Sequence record: OR539217.1
Strand: one strand, 5' to 3'
Origin: Escherichia phage vB-Eco-KMB22
Length of the DNA stretch: 64,000 nt
A model generated the notes under the pieces. It was not told the origin of the DNA, ran no database searches, and saw only the letters and a list, made by a program, of their open reading frames with translations. Within the stretch, counting starts at the first letter, position 1; each line of letters starts with the position of its first letter. Positions 45,402-55,705 of the stretch are shown one piece after another. The position numbers and the translations under genes were made by a program.

Positions 45402-45409
45402 TATAAATA
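45402..45409 (+). promoter_or_regulatory. late promoter TATAAATA for gene 34
   Basis: exact match. Confidence 0.7.
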
Positions 45410-45443: not shown

Positions 45444-48400
45444 ATGGCCGAGATTAAAAGAAAGTTCAGAGCAGAAGACGGTCTGGACGCAGGTGGCGAT
45501 AAAATAATCAACGTAGCTTTAGCTGATCGTACCGTAGGAACTGACGGTGTTAACGTTGATTACTTAATTCAAGAAAACACAGTTCAACAATATGATCCAA
45601 CTCGTGGATATTTAAAAGATTTTGTAATCATTTATGATAACCGCTTTTGGGCTGCTATAAATGATATTCCAAAACCGGCAGGAGCTTTTAATAGCGGGCG
45701 CTGGAGAGCATTACGTACAGACGCAAACTGGATTACGGTTTCATCTGGTTCATATCAATTAAAATCCGGTGAAGCTATTTCGGTTAATACTGCAACTGGA
45801 AATGACATCACGTTTACTTTACCATCTTCTCCAATTGATGGAGATACTATCGTTCTCCAAGATATTGGAGGAAAACCTGGAGTTAACCAAGTTTTAATTG
45901 TAGCTCCAGTGCAAAGTATTGTAAACTTTAGAGGTGAACAGGTACGTTCAGTACTAATGACTCATCCAAAGTCACAGCTAGTTTTAATTTTTAGTAATCG
46001 TCTGTGGCAAATGTATGTAGCTGATTATAGTAGAGAAGCTGTAGTTGTAACACCAGCGAATACTTATCAAGCGCAATCTAATGATTTTATCGTGCGTAGA
46101 TTTACTTCTGCTGCACCAATTAATGTCAAACTTCCAAGATTTGCTAATCATGGCGATATTATTAATTTCGTTGATTTAGATAAACTGAATCCACTTTATC
46201 ATACAATTGTTACTACATACGATGAAACGACTTCAGTACAAGAAGTTGGAACTCATTCCATTGAAGGCCGTACATCGATTGACGGTTTCTTGATGTTTGA
46301 TGATAATGAGAAATTGTGGAGATTGTTTGACGGGGATAGTAAAGCACGTTTACGCATTATAACGACTAATTCTAATATTCGTCCAAACGAAGAAGTTATG
46401 GTATTTGGTGCGAATAACGGAACAACCCAAACAATTGAGCTTCAGCTTCCTACTGATATTTCTGTTGGTGATACTGTTAAAATTTCCATGAATTACATGA
46501 GAAAAGGACAAACAGTTAAAATCAAAGCTGCCGGTGAAGATAAAATTGCTTCTTCAGTTCAATTGCTGCAATTCCCAAAACGCTCAGAATATCCGCCTGA
46601 AGCTGAATGGGTTACAGTCCAAGAATTAGTTTTTAATGGTGAAACTAATTATGTTCCAGTTTTACAGCTCGCTTATATTGAAGATTCTGATGGAAAATAC
46701 TGGGTTGTACAGCAAAATGTTCCAACTGTAGAAAGAGTAGATTCTTTAAATGATTCTACTAGAGCAAGATTAGGCGTAATTGCTTTAGCTACACAAGCTC
46801 AAGCTAATGTCGATTTAGAAAATTCTCCACAAAAAGAATTAGCAATTACTCCAGAAACGTTAGCTAATCGTACTGCTACAGAAACTCGCAGAGGTATTGC
46901 AAGAATAGCAACTACCGCTCAAGTAAATCAGAACACCACATTCTCTTTTGCAGATGACCTTATCATTACTCCTAAAAAGCTGAATGAAAGAACTGCTACA
47001 GAAACTCGTAGAGGTGTTGCTGAAATTGCTACGCAGCAAGAAACTAATACAGGTACTGATGATACTACAATCATCACTCCTAAAAAGCTTCAAGCTCGCC
47101 AAGGTTCTGAATCATTATCTGGTATTGTAACTTTTGTATCTACTGCAGGTGCTACTCCAGCTTCTAGTCGTGAATTAAATGGTACGAATGTTTATAATAA
47201 AAACACTAATAATTTAGTTGTTTCACCTAAAGCTTTGGATCAGTATAAAGCTACTCCAACACAGCAAGGTGCAGTAATTTTAGCAGTTGAAAGTGAAGTA
47301 ATTGCTGGACAAAGTCAGGAAGGATGGGCAAATGCTGTTGTAACGCCAGAAACGTTACATAAAAAGACATCAACTGATGGAAGAATTGGTTTAATTGAAA
47401 TTGCTACACAAAGTGAAGTTAATACAGGAACTGATTATACTCGTGCAGTCACTCCTAAAACTTTAAATGACCGTAGAGCAACTGAAAGTTTAAGTGGTAT
47501 AGCTGAAATTGCTACACAAGTTGAATTCGACGCAGGCGTCGACGATACTCGTATCTCTACACCATTAAAAATTAAAACTAGATTTAATAGTACTGATCGT
47601 ACTTCTGTTGTTGCTCTATCTGGATTAGTTGAATCAGGAACTCTCTGGGACCATTATACCCTTAATATTCTTGAAGCAAATGAGACACAGCGTGGTACAC
47701 TTCGTGTAGCTACACAGGTTGAAGCTGCTGCAGGAACATTAGATAATGTTTTAATAACTCCTAAAAAGCTTTTAGGTACTAAATCTACCGAATCGCAAGA
47801 AGGTGTTATTAAAGTTGCAACTCAGTCTGAAACTGTGACTGGAACATCAGCAAATACTGCTGTATCTCCAAAAAATTTAAAATGGATTGTGCAGAGTGAA
47901 CCTACCTGGGCAGCTACTACTGCGATAAGAGGTTTTGTTAAAACTTCATCTGGTTCAATTACATTCGTTGGTAATGATACAGTCGGTTCTACCCAAGATT
48001 TAGAACTGTATGAGAAAAATAGCTATGCGGTATCACCATATGAATTAAACCGTGTATTAGCAAATTATTTGCCGTTAAAAGCAAAAGCTGTAGATAGTAA
48101 TTTATTGGATGGTCTAGATTCATCTCAGTTCATTCGTAGGGACATTGCGCAGACAGTTAATGGTTCACTAACCTTAACCCAACAAACGAATCTGAGTGCC
48201 CCTCTTGTATCATCTAGTACTGCTGCGTTTGGTGGTTCAGTTTCGGCAAATAGTACATTAACTATTTCTAATACTGGAACGGCAACTCGTCTGATTTTTG
48301 AGAAAGGACCTCAAACTGGAACTAACCCAGCGCAGACGATGACTATCAGAGTTTGGGGAAATCAGTTTGGTGGTGGATCAGATACAACACGTTCTACTGT

Positions 48401-49313
48401 ATTTGAAGTTGGTGATGAAACATCTAATCACTTTTATTCTCAACGTAATAAAGCTGGTAATATTACGTTTAGCATTAATGGTACTGTGATGCCAATAAAT
48501 GTTAACGCTTCCGGTTCATTGAATGCGAATGGCGTAGCAACATTTGGTAGTTCAGTTACAGCCAATGGTGAATTCATTAGCAAGTCTGCAAATGCTTTCA
48601 GAGCAATAAACGGTGATTATGGATTCTTTATCAGGAATGATGGCGGCAGTACATATTTTATGCTTACTGCATCTGGTGATCAGACCGGTGGATTTAATGG
48701 ATTACGTCCATTATCAATTAATAATCAATCCGGTCAAGTCACAATTGGTGAAAGCTTAATCATTGCCAAAGGTGCTACTATAAATTCAGGCGGTTTAACT
48801 GTTAACTCGAGAATTCGTTCTCAGGGTACTAAAACATCTGATTTATATACCCGTGCGCCAACATCTGATACGGTAGGATTCTGGTCAATTGATATTAACG
48901 ATTCAGCCACTTATAACCAATTCCCGGGTTATTTTAAAATGGTTGAAAAAACTAATGAAGTGACTGGGCTTCCATACTTAGAACGTGGAGAAGAAGTTAA
49001 ATCTCCTGGTACACTGACTCAGTTTGGTAATACACTTGATTCACTTTACCAAGATTGGATTACTTATCCAACGACGTCAGACGCGCGTACCACTCGCTGG
49101 ACACGTACATGGCAGAAAACCAAAAACTCTTGGTCAAGTTTTGTTCAGGTATTTGATGGAGGTAACCCTCCTCAACCATCTGATATCGGTGCTTTACCAT
49201 CTGATAATGCCACAATGGGTAATCTTACTATTCGTGATTTCTTACGAATTGGTAATGTTCGCATTATTCCTGACCCAGTGAATAAAACGGTTAAATTTGA
49301 ATGGGTTGAATAA
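45444..49313 (+). CDS. 34: long tail fibre proximal subunit gp34
   Basis: 1289 aa; about ten ~40-aa internal repeats; late promoter 45402-45409. Confidence 0.95.
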   Translation: MAEIKRKFRAEDGLDAGGDKIINVALADRTVGTDGVNVDYLIQENTVQQYDPTRGYLKDFVIIYDNRFWAAINDIPKPAGAFNSGRWRALRTDANWITVSSGSYQLKSGEAISVNTATGNDITFTLPSSPIDGDTIVLQDIGGKPGVNQVLIVAPVQSIVNFRGEQVRSVLMTHPKSQLVLIFSNRLWQMYVADYSREAVVVTPANTYQAQSNDFIVRRFTSAAPINVKLPRFANHGDIINFVDLDKLNPLYHTIVTTYDETTSVQEVGTHSIEGRTSIDGFLMFDDNEKLWRLFDGDSKARLRIITTNSNIRPNEEVMVFGANNGTTQTIELQLPTDISVGDTVKISMNYMRKGQTVKIKAAGEDKIASSVQLLQFPKRSEYPPEAEWVTVQELVFNGETNYVPVLQLAYIEDSDGKYWVVQQNVPTVERVDSLNDSTRARLGVIALATQAQANVDLENSPQKELAITPETLANRTATETRRGIARIATTAQVNQNTTFSFADDLIITPKKLNERTATETRRGVAEIATQQETNTGTDDTTIITPKKLQARQGSESLSGIVTFVSTAGATPASSRELNGTNVYNKNTNNLVVSPKALDQYKATPTQQGAVILAVESEVIAGQSQEGWANAVVTPETLHKKTSTDGRIGLIEIATQSEVNTGTDYTRAVTPKTLNDRRATESLSGIAEIATQVEFDAGVDDTRISTPLKIKTRFNSTDRTSVVALSGLVESGTLWDHYTLNILEANETQRGTLRVATQVEAAAGTLDNVLITPKKLLGTKSTESQEGVIKVATQSETVTGTSANTAVSPKNLKWIVQSEPTWAATTAIRGFVKTSSGSITFVGNDTVGSTQDLELYEKNSYAVSPYELNRVLANYLPLKAKAVDSNLLDGLDSSQFIRRDIAQTVNGSLTLTQQTNLSAPLVSSSTAAFGGSVSANSTLTISNTGTATRLIFEKGPQTGTNPAQTMTIRVWGNQFGGGSDTTRSTVFEVGDETSNHFYSQRNKAGNITFSINGTVMPINVNASGSLNANGVATFGSSVTANGEFISKSANAFRAINGDYGFFIRNDGGSTYFMLTASGDQTGGFNGLRPLSINNQSGQVTIGESLIIAKGATINSGGLTVNSRIRSQGTKTSDLYTRAPTSDTVGFWSIDINDSATYNQFPGYFKMVEKTNEVTGLPYLERGEEVKSPGTLTQFGNTLDSLYQDWITYPTTSDARTTRWTRTWQKTKNSWSSFVQVFDGGNPPQPSDIGALPSDNATMGNLTIRDFLRIGNVRIIPDPVNKTVKFEWVE

Positions 49314-49321
49314 GAGGTATT

Positions 49322-50437
49322 ATGGAAAAATTTATGGCAGAGTTTGGACAAGGATATGTCCAAACGCCATTTTTATCGGAAAGTAATTCAGTAAGATACA
49401 AAATAAGTATAGCGGGTTCTTGCCCGCTTTCTACAGCAGGACCATACGTTAAATTTCAGGATAATCCTGTAGGAAGTCAAACATTTAGCGCAGGTCTTCA
49501 TTTAAGAGTTTTTGACCCTTCCACCGGAGCATTAGTTGATAGTAAGTCATATGCTTTTTCGACTTCAAATGATACTACATCAGCTGCTTTTGTTAGTTTC
49601 ATGAATTCTTTGACGAATAATCGAATTGTCGCTATATTAACTAGTGGAAAGGTTAATTTTCCTCCTGAAGTAGTATCTTGGTTAAGAACCGCCGGAACGT
49701 CTGCTTTTCCATCTGATTCTATATTGTCAAGATTCGACGTATCATATGCTGCTTTTTATACTTCTTCTAAAAGAGCTATTGCATTAGAGCATGTTAAATT
49801 AAGTAATAGAAAAAGCACAGATGATTATCAAACTATTTTAGATGTTGTATTTGACAGTTTAGAAGACGTCGGAGCTACCGGGTTTCCAAGAAGAACGTAT
49901 GAAAGCGTTGAGCAATTCATGTCAGCGGTTGGTGGAACTAATAACGAAATTGCGCGTCTACCAACTTCAGCTACTATAAGTAAATTATCTGATTATAATT
50001 TAATTCCTGGCGATGTTCTTTATCTTAAAGCTCAGTTATATGCTGATGCCGATTTACTTGCTCTTGGAACTACAAATATATCTATCCGTTTTTATAATGC
50101 ATCAAATGGATATATTTCCTCGACACAAGCTGAATTTACCGGACAAGCTGGGTCATGGGAATTAAAGGAAGATTATGTAGTTGTTCCAGAAAACGCTGTA
50201 GGATTTACGATATATGCACAAAGAACTGCTAAAGCTGGCCAAGGTGGCATGAGAAATTTAAGCTTTTCTGAAGTATCAAGAAACGGTGGTATTTCAAAAC
50301 CTGCTGAATTTGGCGTCAACGGTATTCGTGTTAATTATATCTGTGAATCCGCTTCACCTCCGGATATAATGGTACTTCCTACGCAAGCATCATCTAAAAC
50401 TGGTAAAGTGTTTGGGCAAGAATTTAGAGAAGTATAA
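49322..50437 (+). CDS. 35: long tail fibre hinge gp35
   Basis: 371 aa, position. Confidence 0.9.
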   Translation: MEKFMAEFGQGYVQTPFLSESNSVRYKISIAGSCPLSTAGPYVKFQDNPVGSQTFSAGLHLRVFDPSTGALVDSKSYAFSTSNDTTSAAFVSFMNSLTNNRIVAILTSGKVNFPPEVVSWLRTAGTSAFPSDSILSRFDVSYAAFYTSSKRAIALEHVKLSNRKSTDDYQTILDVVFDSLEDVGATGFPRRTYESVEQFMSAVGGTNNEIARLPTSATISKLSDYNLIPGDVLYLKAQLYADADLLALGTTNISIRFYNASNGYISSTQAEFTGQAGSWELKEDYVVVPENAVGFTIYAQRTAKAGQGGMRNLSFSEVSRNGGISKPAEFGVNGIRVNYICESASPPDIMVLPTQASSKTGKVFGQEFREV

Positions 50438-50440
50438 ATT

Positions 50441-50468
50441 GAGGGAGCCTTCGGGTTCCCTTTTTCTT
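50441..50468 (+). terminator. hairpin plus U-run after gene 35
   Basis: gggagcc-ttcg-ggttccc then ttttt. Confidence 0.75.
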
Positions 50469-50476
50469 TATAAATA
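50469..50476 (+). promoter_or_regulatory. late promoter TATAAATA for gene 36
   Basis: exact match. Confidence 0.7.
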
Positions 50477-50499: not shown

Positions 50500-51165
50500 A
50501 TGGCTGATTTAAAAGTAGGTTCAACAACCGGAGGCTCTGTCATTTGGCATCAAGGAAATTTTCCATTGAATCCAGCCGGTGACGATGTACTCTATAAATC
50601 ATTTAAAATATATTCAGAATATAATAAACCACAAGCTGCTGATAACGATTTCGTTTCTAAAGCTAATGGTGGTACTTATGCATCAAAGGTAACATTTAAC
50701 GGTGGAATTCAAGTTCCGTATGCTGTAAACAACACAAACCCATGCGGTGTTTATCCAGGTAACGGTGATAATGCTACTTTTGCTGTAGCAAATATCGATA
50801 TTGTTTCGTGGAATGGTATTGGTTTTAAATCATCACAAGGTTCAGCAGCTCGAACTGTTGTAATTAATGCACGTAATGGTGATATTAGTACAAAAGGCGT
50901 TGTGTCGGCAGCAGTTCAAGTAAGAAGTGATGCGGCTGCTCCTATAGCAGCGAATGACCTTACTAGAAAGGACTATGTTGATGGAGCAATAAATACTGTT
51001 ACGGCAAATGCAAACTCTAGGGTGCTACGGTCTGGTGACACCATGATAGGTAATTTAACAGCGCCAAACTTTTTCTCGCAGAATCCTGCATCTCAACCTT
51101 CACACGTTCCACGATTTGACCAAATCGTAATTAAGGATTCTGTTCAAGATTTCGGCTATTATTAA
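50500..51165 (+). CDS. 36: long tail fibre distal connector gp36
   Basis: 221 aa; late promoter 50469-50476. Confidence 0.9.
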
Positions 51166-51173
51166 GAGGACTT

Positions 51174-54100
51174 ATGGCTACTTTAAAACAAATACAATTT
51201 AAAAGAAGCAAAACCGCAGGTGCACGTCCTGCTGCTTCAGTATTAGCCGAAGGTGAATTGGCTATAAACTTAAAAGATAGAACAATTTTTACTAAAGATG
51301 ATTCAGGAAATATCATCGATTTAAGCATTTCTACTGGCGGTAATATCAGTGGTAATATCACTCAAACTGGTGATTATACACAGACTGGAAAATTTAATTT
51401 AATTGGTCCGCAAATTGTAGCAAGCGGTGGATATATTGAGTTTAATTATCGTACTACTGGAAGTGGGGCTTGGTCCGGTCAACATACTGCGAAAGCTCCA
51501 ATTTTTGTAGATTTAAGCTCAGCTACTTCCACATCTGAATATAATCCTATAATTAAACAGCGCTTTAAAGATGGAACTTTTTCATTAGGTACTTTAGTTT
51601 CTAAAGGTTCGTTGAAGATTCATTATATCAATGAATCTGGCGATTCGAAATATTGGACGTTTCGACGTGACGGCGGATTTACTGTTGACGGTGGAGGTTT
51701 AGCAGTATCAGGAGGTAGTATAACTACATCTGGAAATATTGCAGCTATTGGAAATATTACTTCGCCTCAGATTAATACTAAAAATATTATTTTAGATACA
51801 AAAGCATTTGGACAATACGATTCGCAATCATTAGTTCAATATGTTTATCCTGGAACAGGCGAAGAAAATGGTATAAACTATCTTCGTAAAGTTCGAGCTA
51901 AATCAGGCGGTACAATTTATCATGAATTAGCTTCTGCGCAAACCGGAAAAAGTGATGAACTTTCTTGGTGGACTGGTAATACAGCCGTTAATAAACAAAT
52001 GGGTCTTCGTAATGATGGGGCTTTAGTATTACGACGCTCACTCGCAATTGGTACAATTACAACAGATGAAAACATTAATAACTACGGCTCCGCTGGAGCA
52101 ATGGGCGAATGTTATATAGTTATCGGTGATGCATCAACAGGCTTATCATACAAAAAAACTGGAGTATATGATTTAGTTGCTAGTGGTCTTTCTTTAGCAT
52201 CTATTACTCCTGATAGTTTCCGTAGTACCCGTAAAGCGATTTTTGGTCGTTCCGAGGACCAAGGTACAACATGGATTATGCCTGGAACCAACGCCGCGTT
52301 TTTATCGGTTCAAACACAAGCTGATGAAAACACTGCTGGAGACGGCCAGACGCATATTGGCTATAACTCAGGCGGAAAAATGAACCACTATTTCCGTGGT
52401 AAAGGCAAAACTAATATTAATACTCAAGAAGGCATGGAAGTTAACCCGGGTATTTTGAAATTGGTAACTGGCTCTAATAATGTAATGTTTTATGCTGATG
52501 GCGGTATTACATCTGTTAAGCAGCTTTCAATATATAATGGCATATATTTAGCAGCTAATAATTCTACTGCTGGGCTAACATTCGCTCCAACTACTACAAT
52601 TGATGGCACTAAGCAAATTTTGTGGGAAGGCGGTACTCGTGCTGGTCAGAATAAAAGCTATGTAACTGTTAAAGCATGGGGTAATTCATTTAACGCATCT
52701 GGCGATCGTAATCGTGAAACGGTTTTTGAAGTAGCTGATGGACAAGGATATTATTTTTATTCACAGCGTGTGGCTCCAAGTGGCTCTGAAACTACTGGGC
52801 CTGTTGTAACCCAGTTCAATGGACAAGTTAATGCTAGAGGAAGTATTATTACTGACGGAAGTTTTAAAGTTAATGGATTAAGCACTTTAGTCGGTAATGT
52901 TACCATGTCTAATGGTTTGTTTGTCCAAGGTGGTTCTTCTATTACTGGACAAGTAAAAATTGGTGGAACTGCTGATGCATTAAGAATTTGGAATGCCGAA
53001 TACGGTGCTATTTTCCGTCGCTCAGAAACAGCATTACATATTATCCCGACTCCTAAAGATGCCGGTGAAAGTGGTGGAATAAGTAATCTCCGCCCACTTA
53101 GTATTAGTCTTAATAATGGTATGGTACAAATGCGCCATTCTGTTACGTTAGGCGATGATGGCGCTGGCGGTAATATGATTACTGTGGACAACGATACCAA
53201 ACTTGTTGTTGTTACTAGTAATAGTCGCATTTCTCCTAATTACCGTATGCAGGTAGGACAAGCAGCTTATATTGATGCTGAATGTACTGACACAGTTCGC
53301 CCGGCTGGTGCAGGGTCTTTTGCTTCACAAAATAATGAAAACGTTCGTGCTCCATTCTATATGAATATTAATCGTACAGATACAAGTACTTACGTTCCTA
53401 TTTTGAAACAACGATATGTCCAAGGAAACAGTTGTTATTCTCTGGGAACTCTAATTAACGGCGGTAACTTCAGAGTTCATTATCATGAAGGCGGCGATGG
53501 CGGTTCGACTGGCGCTATTATAAAGGATTTAGGTTGGGAATTTAACAAAAATGGTGATTTTATATCTCCTAAGCGTGTTTCTGCTGGTGGTTCAGTTTAT
53601 TTAGGTACAGACGGCAATATTACAGGTGGTTCTGGCAATTTTGCTAATTTAAACAGTACAATTGAATCACTTAAAACCGATATTGTATCGAGTTACCCAA
53701 TCGGTGCTCCTATTCCATGGCCAACGGATACTCCTCCTGACGGTTACGCTATTATGGAAGGCCAGACTTTTGATAAGTCTGCATACCCAAAATTGGCTAT
53801 GGCTTACCCATCTGGCGTAATTCCAGATATGCGCGGGCAAACTATTAAAGGTAAACCAAGTGGTCGAGCTGTATTAAGCGCAGAAGCCGATGGTGTTAAG
53901 GCTCATAGCCATAGTGCATCGGCTTCAAGTACTGACTTGGGTACTAAAACTACGTCGAGTTTTGATTATGGTACTAAGACGACAAGTAGCTTTGACTATG
54001 GCACTAAGACTAGCAATACCACAGGTAACCACTCTCATACTGTAAGCGGTACTACGAGTTCTGCTGGTGCACACCAACATGCGCGCTCAGGTCCTCAGAT

Positions 54101-54449
54101 ACAAGCCGGCATACCCAATAACATATTCTATGACGGATATAATAGTGTAGGTGCAAACGCCAACGCTAAATTCACTGGAACCGTGAACGGTGCTACTGCA
54201 GGGTCGAATATAGCCAAAACTTCTTCAGACGGTGCTCATACTCATACTTGGTCTGGTACTACAAGCACTACAGGTAACCATGCTCACACAGTAGGTATTG
54301 GTGCTCATACCCATACTGTAGGTATCGGTGCTCATACCCACACGGTAGCAATTGGCTCGCATGGTCATACTATCACTGTAAATAGTACAGGTAATACAGA
54401 AAACACGGTTAAAAACATTGCTTTTAACTATATCGTTCGTTTAGCATAA
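51174..54449 (+). CDS. 37: long tail fibre distal subunit gp37 (receptor-binding tip)
   Basis: 1091 aa; C-terminal His-x-His repeats and [11 protein letters not shown] terminus. Confidence 0.95.
54291..54371 (+). repeat. three 27-bp tandem units encoding His-x-His nonapeptides in gp37 tip
   Basis: units 1 and 2 differ only at 3 synonymous positions; unit 3 diverged. Confidence 0.85.
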
Positions 54450-54451
54450 GG

Positions 54452-54470
54452 AGAGGGGCTTCGGCCCCTT
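54452..54470 (+). other. intercistronic CUUCGG hairpin between 37 and 38 (no U-run)
   Basis: aggggc-ttcg-gcccct. Confidence 0.5.
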
Positions 54471-54476
54471 CTAAAT

Positions 54477-55028
54477 ATGAAAATATATCATTATTATTTT
54501 GACACTAAAGAATTTTACAAAGAAGAAAATTACAAACCGGTTAAAGGCCTCGGTCTTCCTGCTCATTCAACAATTAAAAAACCTTTAGAACCTAAAGAAG
54601 GATATGCAGTTGTATTTGATGAACGTACTCAGGATTGGATTTATGAAGAAGACCATCGCGGAAAACGAGCATGGACTTTTAATAAAGAAGAAATTTTTAT
54701 AAGTGAAATTGGAAGCCCGGTTGGTATAACTTTTGATGAGCCTGGCGAATTTGATATATGGACTGATGACGGTTGGAAAGAAGACGAAACATATAAGCGA
54801 GTTTTAATTCGTAATAGAAAAATTGAAGAATTATATAAAGAGTTCCAAGTTTTAAATAATATGATTGAAGCTTCTGTCGCCAATAAAAAGGAAAAATTTT
54901 ATTATAAAAACCTTAAGCGGTTCTTTGCTCTTTTAGAAAAGCATGAGCATTTAGGTGGTGAATTCCCTTCATGGCCTGAAAAAGAACGGAAACCTTGGTA
55001 TAAGCGTTTATTCAAGCATTACGTATAA
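54477..55028 (+). CDS. 38: gp38 tail-fibre assembly chaperone (T4-type, not T2-type adhesin)
   Basis: 183 aa, Lys/Glu-rich, no glycine-rich adhesin segments. Confidence 0.85.
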   Translation: MKIYHYYFDTKEFYKEENYKPVKGLGLPAHSTIKKPLEPKEGYAVVFDERTQDWIYEEDHRGKRAWTFNKEEIFISEIGSPVGITFDEPGEFDIWTDDGWKEDETYKRVLIRNRKIEELYKEFQVLNNMIEASVANKKEKFYYKNLKRFFALLEKHEHLGGEFPSWPEKERKPWYKRLFKHYV

Positions 55029-55048
55029 ATATCTTAAAAGGAGGGTCT

Positions 55049-55705
55049 ATGGCAGCACCTAGAATATCATTTTCGCCCTCTGATATTCTGTTTGGTGTTC
55101 TAGATCGCTTGTTCAAAGATAACGCTACTGGGAAGGTTCTTGCTTCCCGGGTAGCTGTCGTAATTCTTTTATTTATGATGGCGATTGTTTGGTATAGGGG
55201 AGATAGTTTCTTTGAGTACTATAAGCAATCAAAGTATGAAACATACAGTGAAATTATTGAAAAGGAAAGAAATGCACGCTTTGAATCTGTCGCCCTGGAA
55301 CAACTCCAGATAGTTCATATATCATCTGAGGCAGACTTTAGTGCGGTGTATTCTTTCCGCCCTAAAAACTTAAACTATTTTGTTGATATTATAGCATACG
55401 AAGGAAGATTACCTTCAACAATAACTGAAAAATCACTTGGAGGATATCCTGTTGATAAAACTATGGATGAATATACAGTTCATTTAAATGGACGTCATTA
55501 TTATTCTGACTCAAAATTTGCTTTTTTACCAACTAAAAAGCCTACTCCCGAAATAAACTACATGTACAGTTGTCCATATTTTAATTTGGATAATATCTAT
55601 GCTGGAACGATAACCATGTACTGGTATAGAAATGATCATATAAGTAATGACCGCCTTGAATCAATATGTGCTCAGGCGGCCAGAATATTAGGAAGGGCTA
55701 AATAA
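55049..55705 (+). CDS. t: holin T
   Basis: 218 aa; single N-terminal TM segment and large periplasmic domain. Confidence 0.9.
   Translation: MAAPRISFSPSDILFGVLDRLFKDNATGKVLASRVAVVILLFMMAIVWYRGDSFFEYYKQSKYETYSEIIEKERNARFESVALEQLQIVHISSEADFSAVYSFRPKNLNYFVDIIAYEGRLPSTITEKSLGGYPVDKTMDEYTVHLNGRHYYSDSKFAFLPTKKPTPEINYMYSCPYFNLDNIYAGTITMYWYRNDHISNDRLESICAQAARILGRAK

Follow-up and report, generated by a model that had tools for sequence, protein, structure and literature searches.

Analysis of the distal long tail fibre of Escherichia phage vB-Eco-KMB22 (OR539217.1) has revealed that two short repeats in the tip of gp37 form a matched pair. In 185 distinct homologous tips, each number n of decapeptides is paired with n+1 His-x-His spacings of nine residues; there is a single true exception. 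The pairing is what is added here. The gene, the repeats, the His-x-His count and the receptor of a variant two residues away were already in GenBank or the literature. The pairing rule was not found stated in the literature searched, where papers note only that His-x-His counts vary and may be proportional to needle length. The window, the whole stretch of 64,000 nucleotides that was analysed, supplies all positions given below. Gene identities, repeat anatomy, homology to the T4 tip structure (PDB 2XGF; Bartual et al. 2010), the His-x-His count and the family-wide co-variation of the repeats were established in this analysis, and T4 structural details were taken second-hand from PMC6957217, PMC9659904 and PMC12609058. 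The region carries the genes of a T4-like coliphage for gp37, the distal subunit of the long tail fibre, and for gp38, the chaperone dedicated to its folding. As a whole, it is very probably best explained as a T4-type tip with its chaperone, in which the paired insertions amount to one added layer and the head chooses the receptor.

Anatomy of the gp37 tip

The gp37 protein shows no differences from the GenBank entry of the same phage. Across all 3855 nt the DNA is 99.7-99.9% identical to FelixPlatter/Bas40, teqhad, Ozark and R5505; over the gp37-gp38 region, R5505 stands at 99.7% and FelixPlatter, Ozark, teqhad and others at 99.9%. FelixPlatter/Bas40 gp37 differs by two residues (K144E and D941N, the latter within the second decapeptide) and teqhad gp37 by three. 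In these phages, as in Ozark and R5505, the repeats, the His-x-His count and the architecture are all as here. For R5505 and KAW1E185, Korf 2019 (PMC6563267) had already counted 7-9 His-x-His motifs and matched the fibre to 2XGF with HHpred. Minus-strand ORFs within gp37 (e.g., 52757-53230, 157 aa) were taken as frame shadows of this well-supported gene. Scans for sigma-70 promoters and terminators inside the genes gave no signal above shuffled expectation.

Features of the gp37 tip and its neighbourhood (positions in the window)
Feature	Position	Strand	Remarks
T4 late-promoter motif TATAAATA	50469..50476	+	24 nt upstream of gene 36
gp36, distal hinge connector binding the gp37 N-terminus, 221 aa	50500..51165	+	Pfam Phage_T4_gp36, E 4e-42
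gp37	51174..54449	+	1091 aa; exact match to WPJ70893.1
Collar domain core, residues 844-891	53703..53846	+	Pfam PF07484 Collar, E 2e-11, 43.9 bits vs cutoff 24
His-x-His site 1 (HSH, residues 911-913)	53904..53912	+	Needle base, outgoing arm
Outgoing-arm decapeptide repeat, two units and a degenerate third start (GTKT)	53940..54011	+	One full unit in T4
Outgoing-arm 14-residue module, sites 2 (HSH, residue 953) and 3 (HQH, residue 967)	54030..54080	+	
Head (tip) domain region, residues 970-1021	54081..54236	+	Presumed OmpC/LPS contact surface
Returning-arm 14-residue module, sites 4 (HTH, residue 1022) and 5 (HAH, residue 1036)	54237..54287	+	
Returning-arm nonapeptide repeat, three units, His-x-His sites 6-8	54291..54371	+	T4 lacks one VGIGAHTHT
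Conserved C-terminal tail, returning to the collar	54372..54449 (incl. stop codon)	+	100% identical to T4
Gene 38 translation-initiation region	54448..54468	+	Shine-Dalgarno AAGGAG 54448-54453; hairpin 54455-54468
gp38, T4-type tail-fibre assembly chaperone, 183 aa	54477..55028	+	181/183 identical to T4 gp38

Judged by homology to 2XGF, three gp37 chains would build a collar, a thin six-stranded needle and a small receptor-touching head from their last ~280 residues, each chain running out to the tip and then back within the needle. A phmmer search aligned gp37 residues 814-1091 with residues 2-242 of 2XGF (E 7.3e-96), and the alignment is broken by gaps only where the decapeptide, head domain and nonapeptide lie. 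The collar core aligns with the 2XGF collar and the first His-x-His site with T4 H883/H885. The Pfam phage tail fibre repeat PF03335, whose unit is 14 residues long, was matched in 6 stretches (30.3 bits vs cutoff 20). Eight His-x-His motifs are present, three on the outgoing arm (residues 911, 953 and 967) and five on the returning arm (1022, 1036, 1045, 1054 and 1063). An AlphaFold2 monomer model of residues 814-1091, built from a 41-sequence alignment, reached a mean pLDDT of 48.8 and a pTM of 0.19; it was left unused because the predictor folds a monomer, whereas the needle is an intertwined trimer.

The original prediction had described a decapeptide repeated with synonymous codon changes and three 27-bp units encoding VGIGAHTHT, VGIGAHTHT and VAIGSHGHT, and both descriptions were borne out. 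The full decapeptide units occupy residues 923-932 (nt 53940-53969) and 933-942 (nt 53970-53999). They differ at 8 of 30 nt, every difference being synonymous and one a serine codon-family switch (TCG to AGT), and their longest common exact run is 8 nt. The nonapeptides follow one another at 54291-54317, 54318-54344 and 54345-54371; the two VGIGAHTHT units share a 14-nt exact run and differ at 3 of 27 nt, all synonymously. DNA identity between units is thus 73% for the decapeptide and 89% for the nonapeptide. Tandem Repeats Finder reported period 30, 2.7 copies and score 83 for the first array, and period 27, 2.4 copies and score 100 for the second. In the GenBank record of teqhad, the nonapeptide stretch (27-bp repeat) is annotated as a repeat_region.

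Comparison with T4 and the T-even relatives

T4 gp37 has 1026 aa in NC_000866, in line with the figure in the original prediction, against 1091 aa here, and overall identity is 63%. Neither length nor repeat count is the same; T4 carries one decapeptide and one fewer nonapeptide. Both proteins follow the collar-needle-head plan. They agree fully or almost fully in the collar and over the last ~41 residues (100% over the last 41), and they share the 14- and 9-residue His-x-His modules. The gain of 65 aa is real, but about 28 of these residues lie in the shaft and not in the tip: 11 fall at residues 652-662 and a net ~17 between residues 60 and 185, a stretch of only 16-36% identity. In the tip, the second decapeptide adds 10 aa to the outgoing arm, a longer and unrelated-looking head adds 18 aa (~26-32% identity between the two heads), and the third nonapeptide adds 9 aa to the returning arm. 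The His-x-His spacings are [42,14,55,14,9,9,9] here and [32,14,37,14,9,9] in T4, so that eight predicted metal sites face seven.

In T4, every His-x-His motif provides two histidines from each chain, and the three chains together thus coordinate an axial iron ion octahedrally. Two contacts published for T4, G921-F970 and H929-G964, combined with the D11 limits (882-1009) (PMC6957217), lead to an antiparallel register of i+j ~1892, which sets the T4 decapeptide 895-904 opposite the nonapeptides 984-1001. By extension, the additional site in the present gp37 would be formed by an outgoing-arm decapeptide and the opposing returning-arm VGIGAHTHT, as one added needle layer that leaves the register of the arms undisturbed. 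A point against this is that every layer lengthens one arm by 10 residues but the other by 9, a mismatch of one residue that the register would have to take up each time. This apposition, read from the co-variation and the two T4 contacts, and the occupancy of the sites by iron are predicted features of this protein.

The repeat architecture is the same as here in all 11 other T-even relatives examined, which span 99.9% down to ~78% DNA identity and two genera. T4 is the short outlier beside them and the extra layer is the usual state; as a standard for the phages related to it, T4 is unusually short. The sole length change among near-identical genomes is a loss of 6 aa (18 bp) in teqdroes gp37. 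Its location in the repeats was ruled out, as it maps to shaft residues 559-564.

Matched repeats across the tip family

A protein search for homologues returned mostly prophage side tail fibres and not T-even gp37, and T-even sequences were gathered individually from a phage collection. Tips passing a C-terminal completeness filter (185 distinct) formed the co-variation set. A spacing of 32 residues on the outgoing arm occurs with two 9-spacings on the returning arm in 95 of the 185, a spacing of 42 with three 9-spacings in 82, a spacing of 41 likewise in 2, and a spacing of 52 with four 9-spacings in 4. The arms are matched in 183 tips. Tips that failed the filter extended the rule, a spacing of 62 residues going with five 9-spacings and one of 73 with six. 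The 14-residue module, a GxHxH unit, is found on both arms or on neither. The number of His-x-His motifs ranges from 5 to at least 10 across the family, in quantised steps of needle length.

The exception is a metagenomic contig (L005; IMG/VR 3300030021_000020) with two decapeptides and only two 9-spacings; either the pairing tolerates exceptions or a repeat was collapsed in that assembly. On a tree of the flanks, based on only 70 alignment columns and ignoring recombination, each character underwent ~28 changes and the joint state 29; the decapeptide and nonapeptide counts therefore change together, and repeatedly. The two repeats do not vary independently; the 185 tips show matched-pair change only, apart from the one exception.

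The pairing rule reaches beyond T4-like phages. Lambda Stf, prophage fibres related to it that come with Tfa chaperones, and those Felixounavirus fibres that end in T4-like needle tips have a homologous C-terminal collar-needle-head (60-66% identity) and pair decapeptide and nonapeptide as gp37 does, whereas their N-terminal shafts and virion attachment are unrelated to those of gp37, their head domains differ, and many are without the 14-residue module on either arm. The Bas63 fibres have been described as carrying 6-7 His-x-His motifs on a needle of six strands (PMC12609058). It may be that outgoing 'GTKxxSxFDY' units and returning 'VxIGxHxHT' units occur throughout as n and n+1, with n from 1 to at least 5, and the present gp37 may be an n=2 member. 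Tentatively, and with less than even confidence, the needle of the whole tip family (T-even gp37, lambda Stf and many prophage fibres) can be seen as quantised paired modules that change in matched steps, with cassette recombination as a likelier route than slippage. If such a paired-module reading is true, needle length and iron-site number change in matched steps only. For the engineering of T4-type or lambda-Stf-type tips, an outgoing decapeptide and a returning His-x-His nonapeptide should be added or removed together.

Receptor choice, repeat stability and the role of gp38

The quantised length of the needle in the family raises another reading, namely that length itself (eight layers against seven) is the functional variable, an adaptation of host range that reaches through thicker LPS or O-antigen or selects a different receptor. 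In the Bas63 cryo-EM paper, too, longer needles are suggested to go with proportionally more His-x-His motifs (PMC12609058). This is nevertheless unlikely. T4, with seven sites, and Bas40, with eight, both use OmpC on K-12, and for FelixPlatter/Bas40 this dependence was shown genetically, with complementation (PMC8594841). T4 receptor-specificity mutations all map to the head domain (PMC5221442, PMC6957217, PMC9603124), which has been the subject of mutational mapping (PMC5221442, PMC6957217). The 55-residue head spacing is found on both needle lengths, in P0069 and in the present gp37, whose heads look only distantly related when judged by eye. Nothing in the analysis pointed to the receptor being set by needle length, and with Bas40 dependent on OmpC as T4 is, the extra layer does not change it. 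Receptor choice would rest with the head domain, which differs from that of T4 and yet targets OmpC in the near-identical Bas40 fibre; by analogy with that fibre, two residues away, the present gp37 probably uses OmpC as well.

Still less probable is the view that both tandem repeats are active copy-number hotspots, where slippage or unequal recombination would shift needle length and host range on short timescales. T4 host-range mutants on Yersinia are reported to carry duplications in the adhesin region of gene 37 (Tetart et al. 1996, J Mol Biol 258:726, as cited in PMC7002106, PMC5221442 and PMC3157838), the VGIGAHTHT units are identical at 24 of 27 nt with their exact run of 14 nt, and one natural mismatched variant exists in the metagenomic contig. 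However, the divergence of the decapeptide units, with exact identity of at most 8 nt, makes them a poor slippage substrate. In view of the 183 matched tips, changes to one arm alone are evidently either not tolerated or lost again. Copy numbers are constant in the 11 other T-even phages, with no sign of ongoing change among them, and teqdroes alone among near-identical genomes has changed in length, in the shaft. The marks of a hypervariable, contingency-type locus, near-identical DNA units and a copy number that differs between close relatives, were looked for and not found, given the unit identities and this invariance. Of the proposal that repeat number alters the metal-binding needle and possibly host range, the first part stands, since the extra unit adds a predicted metal site. 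The second found no support, as the units have diverged synonymously and copy numbers are constant in the T-even relatives except T4.

The reading frame of gp38 begins 27 nt past the gp37 stop. The protein matches PHROG 105 'tail fiber assembly' (E 3.6e-45), and its score against Pfam Caudo_TAP (13.4 bits) is under the 22.1 cutoff. Roles of tail-fibre chaperones have been described (PMC3004832). Together with gp57A, encoded elsewhere, gp38 would help the gp37 trimer to fold and would not be a virion component; the folding role and absence from the virion are established for T4, and 99% identity suggests the same here. That gp38 is instead a T2/T6/S16-type adhesin (~260 aa) capping a cleaved gp37, with specificity outside gp37, was raised only because such a fibre is the rule among T-even relatives (PMC3157838), but it found no support and has practically no likelihood, being refuted by the length of 183 aa, the near-identity to the T4 chaperone, the PHROG match and the full T4-type needle and head in gp37. 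The chaperone type predicted for gp38 was therefore correct, and it supports the accompanying claim that receptor specificity resides in the gp37 C-terminus.

Upstream, TATAAATA at 50469 is the sole such motif preceding the gp36-gp37-gp38 block in the window. The motif is unenriched across the window (12 found vs 9.4 expected), and its function as a late promoter is for this reason proposed from position only. Equivalent motifs are similarly placed ahead of gp34 (45402) and t (55024). Between the Shine-Dalgarno sequence of gene 38 and its ATG at 54477 sits a GGGGC-UUCG-GCCCC hairpin; the initiation region folds with an MFE of -15.6 kcal/mol (z -2.0), and its sequence is the same in T4, with no differences.

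The fibre locus and its relatives

The long-tail-fibre genes of the window form the standard T4 block, wholly on the + strand. Their gp37 product is identical in sequence to GenBank WPJ70893.1, 'long tail fiber, distal subunit [Escherichia phage vB-Eco-KMB22]'. The gp38 protein is of the chaperone type, given its identity to T4 gp38 at 181 of 183 residues and a match to PHROG 105 'tail fiber assembly'; the T2/T6 adhesin type is ruled out on the same evidence. The original prediction was thus right to name gp37 and a T4-type gp38, and its description of the gp37 repeats agreed in every detail with the ORF, Tandem Repeats Finder and the in-frame reading. The full decapeptide units differ at 8 of 30 nucleotides, every change being synonymous and one a TCG to AGT serine switch, and are directly followed by a degenerate unit. 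The two identical VGIGAHTHT nonapeptides differ at 3 of 27.

Features of the fibre block in the window
Feature	Position	Strand	Remarks
gp34	45444-49313	+	1289 aa
gp35	49322-50437	+	
gp36	50500-51165	+	
gp37	51174-54449	+	1091 aa
gp38	54477-55028	+	183 aa
holin t	55049-55705	+	
T4 late-promoter motif TATAAATA	45402-45409		just 5' of gp34
T4 late-promoter motif TATAAATA	50469-50476		just 5' of gp36
T4 late-promoter motif TATAAATA	55024-55031		just 5' of t, within gp38 end
UUCG-loop terminator-like hairpin	50441-50462		between gp35 and gp36
N-terminal shaft	51324-51773		gp37 residues ~51-200; 16-36% identical to T4, flanks 96-99%
9-bp tandem repeat TGGAAATAT	51731-51758		3.1 copies, 68% matches
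11-aa mid-shaft insertion	53127-53159		residues 652-662
30-bp array	53933-54012		2.7 copies, Tandem Repeats Finder
Decapeptide, full units	53940-53969, 53970-53999		in-frame reading of 30-bp array
D941N codon	53994-53996		second decapeptide
27-bp array	54285-54348		2.4 copies, Tandem Repeats Finder
VGIGAHTHT	54291-54317, 54318-54344		in-frame reading of 27-bp array
VAIGSHGHT	54345-54371		in-frame reading
Gene 38 start	54448-54479		AAGGAG Shine-Dalgarno 23 nt 5' of ATG
GGGGC-UUCG-GCCCC tetraloop hairpin	54455-54468		between gene 38 Shine-Dalgarno and ATG

The 3855-nt region shares 99.9% identity with Escherichia phages FelixPlatter (Bas40), Ozark and vB_EcoM-101117BS1 and 99.5-99.8% with teqhad, R5505 and teqdroes; 722 phage records match it less closely. 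Among the near-identical genomes the sole length change is a loss of 6 aa in teqdroes (shaft residues 559-564). The 27-bp array is already a repeat_region in the GenBank records of teqhad and teqdroes. The locus is already known: sequenced, annotated, and phenotyped as a variant differing by two amino acids.

The tip and its additions relative to T4

Residues 814-1091 of gp37 match 2XGF, the solved T4 gp37 tip (E 7e-96), with gaps only at the decapeptide, head and nonapeptide, and Pfam recognizes a collar domain and PF03335, the phage fibre repeat of 14 residues. The T4 needle (D11, residues 882-1009) is inserted into the collar; its chain goes out to a small head (~residues 932-959) and then back, the needle of the trimer being therefore six-stranded, and its His-x-His motifs coordinate seven iron ions (PMC6957217, PMC9659904, PMC12609058). 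These motifs lie in T4 at residues 883, 915 and 929 of the outgoing arm and 966, 980, 989 and 998 of the returning arm, and the eight of the window at 911, 953 and 967 and at 1022, 1036, 1045, 1054 and 1063, respectively. An AlphaFold2 monomer model of the tip was uninformative (pLDDT 48.8), as expected for an intertwined trimer.

As predicted, gp37 is longer than its T4 counterpart of 1026 aa (63% identity), and global alignment distributes the net 65 additional residues over tip and shaft. The second decapeptide contributes 10, the extra His-x-His nonapeptide 9, and the head domain 15 and 3. The shaft mosaic blocks hold ~28 of the 65, with an insertion mid-shaft and a net gain of ~17 in residues 60-185, where identity drops to 16-36%. 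DNA identity to T4 is 98-100% up to ~51300 and again from ~54367 on (last nonapeptide, gp38, t); within gp37 it is a mosaic of 29-91%, a pattern well known from T-even fibre genes, which recombination shuffles (PMC3157838). The 9-bp tandem repeat in the N-terminal region that diverges from T4 is weak and probably mirrors a repetitive ...GNI..GNI... peptide.

Pairing of decapeptides and nonapeptides

Homologous tips were collected by a word-indexed protein search, from IMG/VR viral contigs and from 50%-identity cluster representatives (exhaustive search, best 150 of 1874 matches used), and spacings between consecutive His-x-His motifs were tabulated for 185 distinct complete C-termini among the matches listed. 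The first spacing, which holds the decapeptides, equals 22+10n for n decapeptides and is paired with n+1 terminal nine-residue spacings: 32 with two (95 of 185 tips), 42 with three (82, plus two with a spacing of 41) and 52 with four (4). P0213, a tip with a spacing of 69 and two nine-residue spacings, conforms only if one intermediate His-x-His motif was lost. The sole true mismatch is a metagenomic contig, L005 (IMG/VR UViG_3300030021_000020, match 1501-2331), with two decapeptides (spacing 42) yet just two nine-residue spacings; it could be a genuine unmatched variant or reflect a 27-bp repeat collapsed in assembly. The pairing extends to two tips that failed the C-terminal completeness filter and were left out of the 185 (62 with five, 73 with six). 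The 14-residue module is likewise present in both arms in 106 tips, doubled in both in 1 and absent from both in 76, with two near-misses of 15 or 16 residues.

Parsimony gave 28 changes per character and 29 for the joint state, so that decapeptide and nonapeptide counts change together many times, not once; the change count is rough, since the neighbour-joining tree of conserved flanks used 70 columns only and ignored recombination. In T4, contacts G921-F970 and H929-G964 and the D11 limits 882 and 1009 (PMC6957217) imply an antiparallel register of i+j ~1892, in which the decapeptide (895-904) directly faces the nonapeptides (984-1001). We infer that the two window repeats are one feature: the extra decapeptide and nonapeptide would jointly add one more needle layer and one more metal site.

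Variable His-x-His counts (7-9) have been reported for R5505 and KAW1E185 (Korf et al. 2019, PMC6563267), and a link between needle length and His-x-His number was suggested for Bas63 (PMC12609058). The paired-module rule was not found stated in the searchable literature; it is the sole addition here, a modest structural regularity and not a new kind of system. Much longer needles occur in some family members (P0167, P0212, P0180, P0193, P0198, P0235 and P0041). In these proteins the first spacing is 52, 62 or 73, with 4, 5 or 6 nonapeptide spacings, or the 14-residue module is doubled in both arms, and His-x-His motifs total 7 to 10.

Receptor, host range and expression signals

The architecture of the window (first spacing 42, then 9,9,9) recurs in 11 of 11 other T-even relatives compared, namely the Tequatrovirus members Bas40, Bas42, teqhad, teqdroes, KAW1E185, SHBML-50-1 and GiZh and the Mosigvirus members JK36, LH01, JS09 and O157 typing phage 3; several of them vary in the head domain. 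T4 is the short outlier in this comparison. The proposal that changes in repeat number might alter host range thus finds no support in natural variation. Laboratory duplications in T4 gene 37 reportedly widen host range to Yersinia (Tetart 1996, as cited in PMC7002106, PMC5221442 and PMC3157838).

Two substitutions, K144E and D941N, are all that separates Bas40 gp37 from the window protein, D941N being the sole tip difference (SSFDY in the window, SSFNY in Bas40). Bas40 needs OmpC, a dependence that was genetically complemented (PMC8594841); OmpC is also the receptor of T4 on K-12, and the T4 specificity mutations mapped all lie in the head domain (PMC5221442, PMC6957217, PMC9603124). The extra layer would therefore leave the receptor class unchanged.

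Among the T4 late-promoter motifs of the window, none stands directly before gp37. Folding of the tetraloop hairpin would bring the Shine-Dalgarno and ATG of gene 38 to normal spacing. The T4 initiation region is identical in sequence, and we take the hairpin to be the classic one of T4 gene 38.
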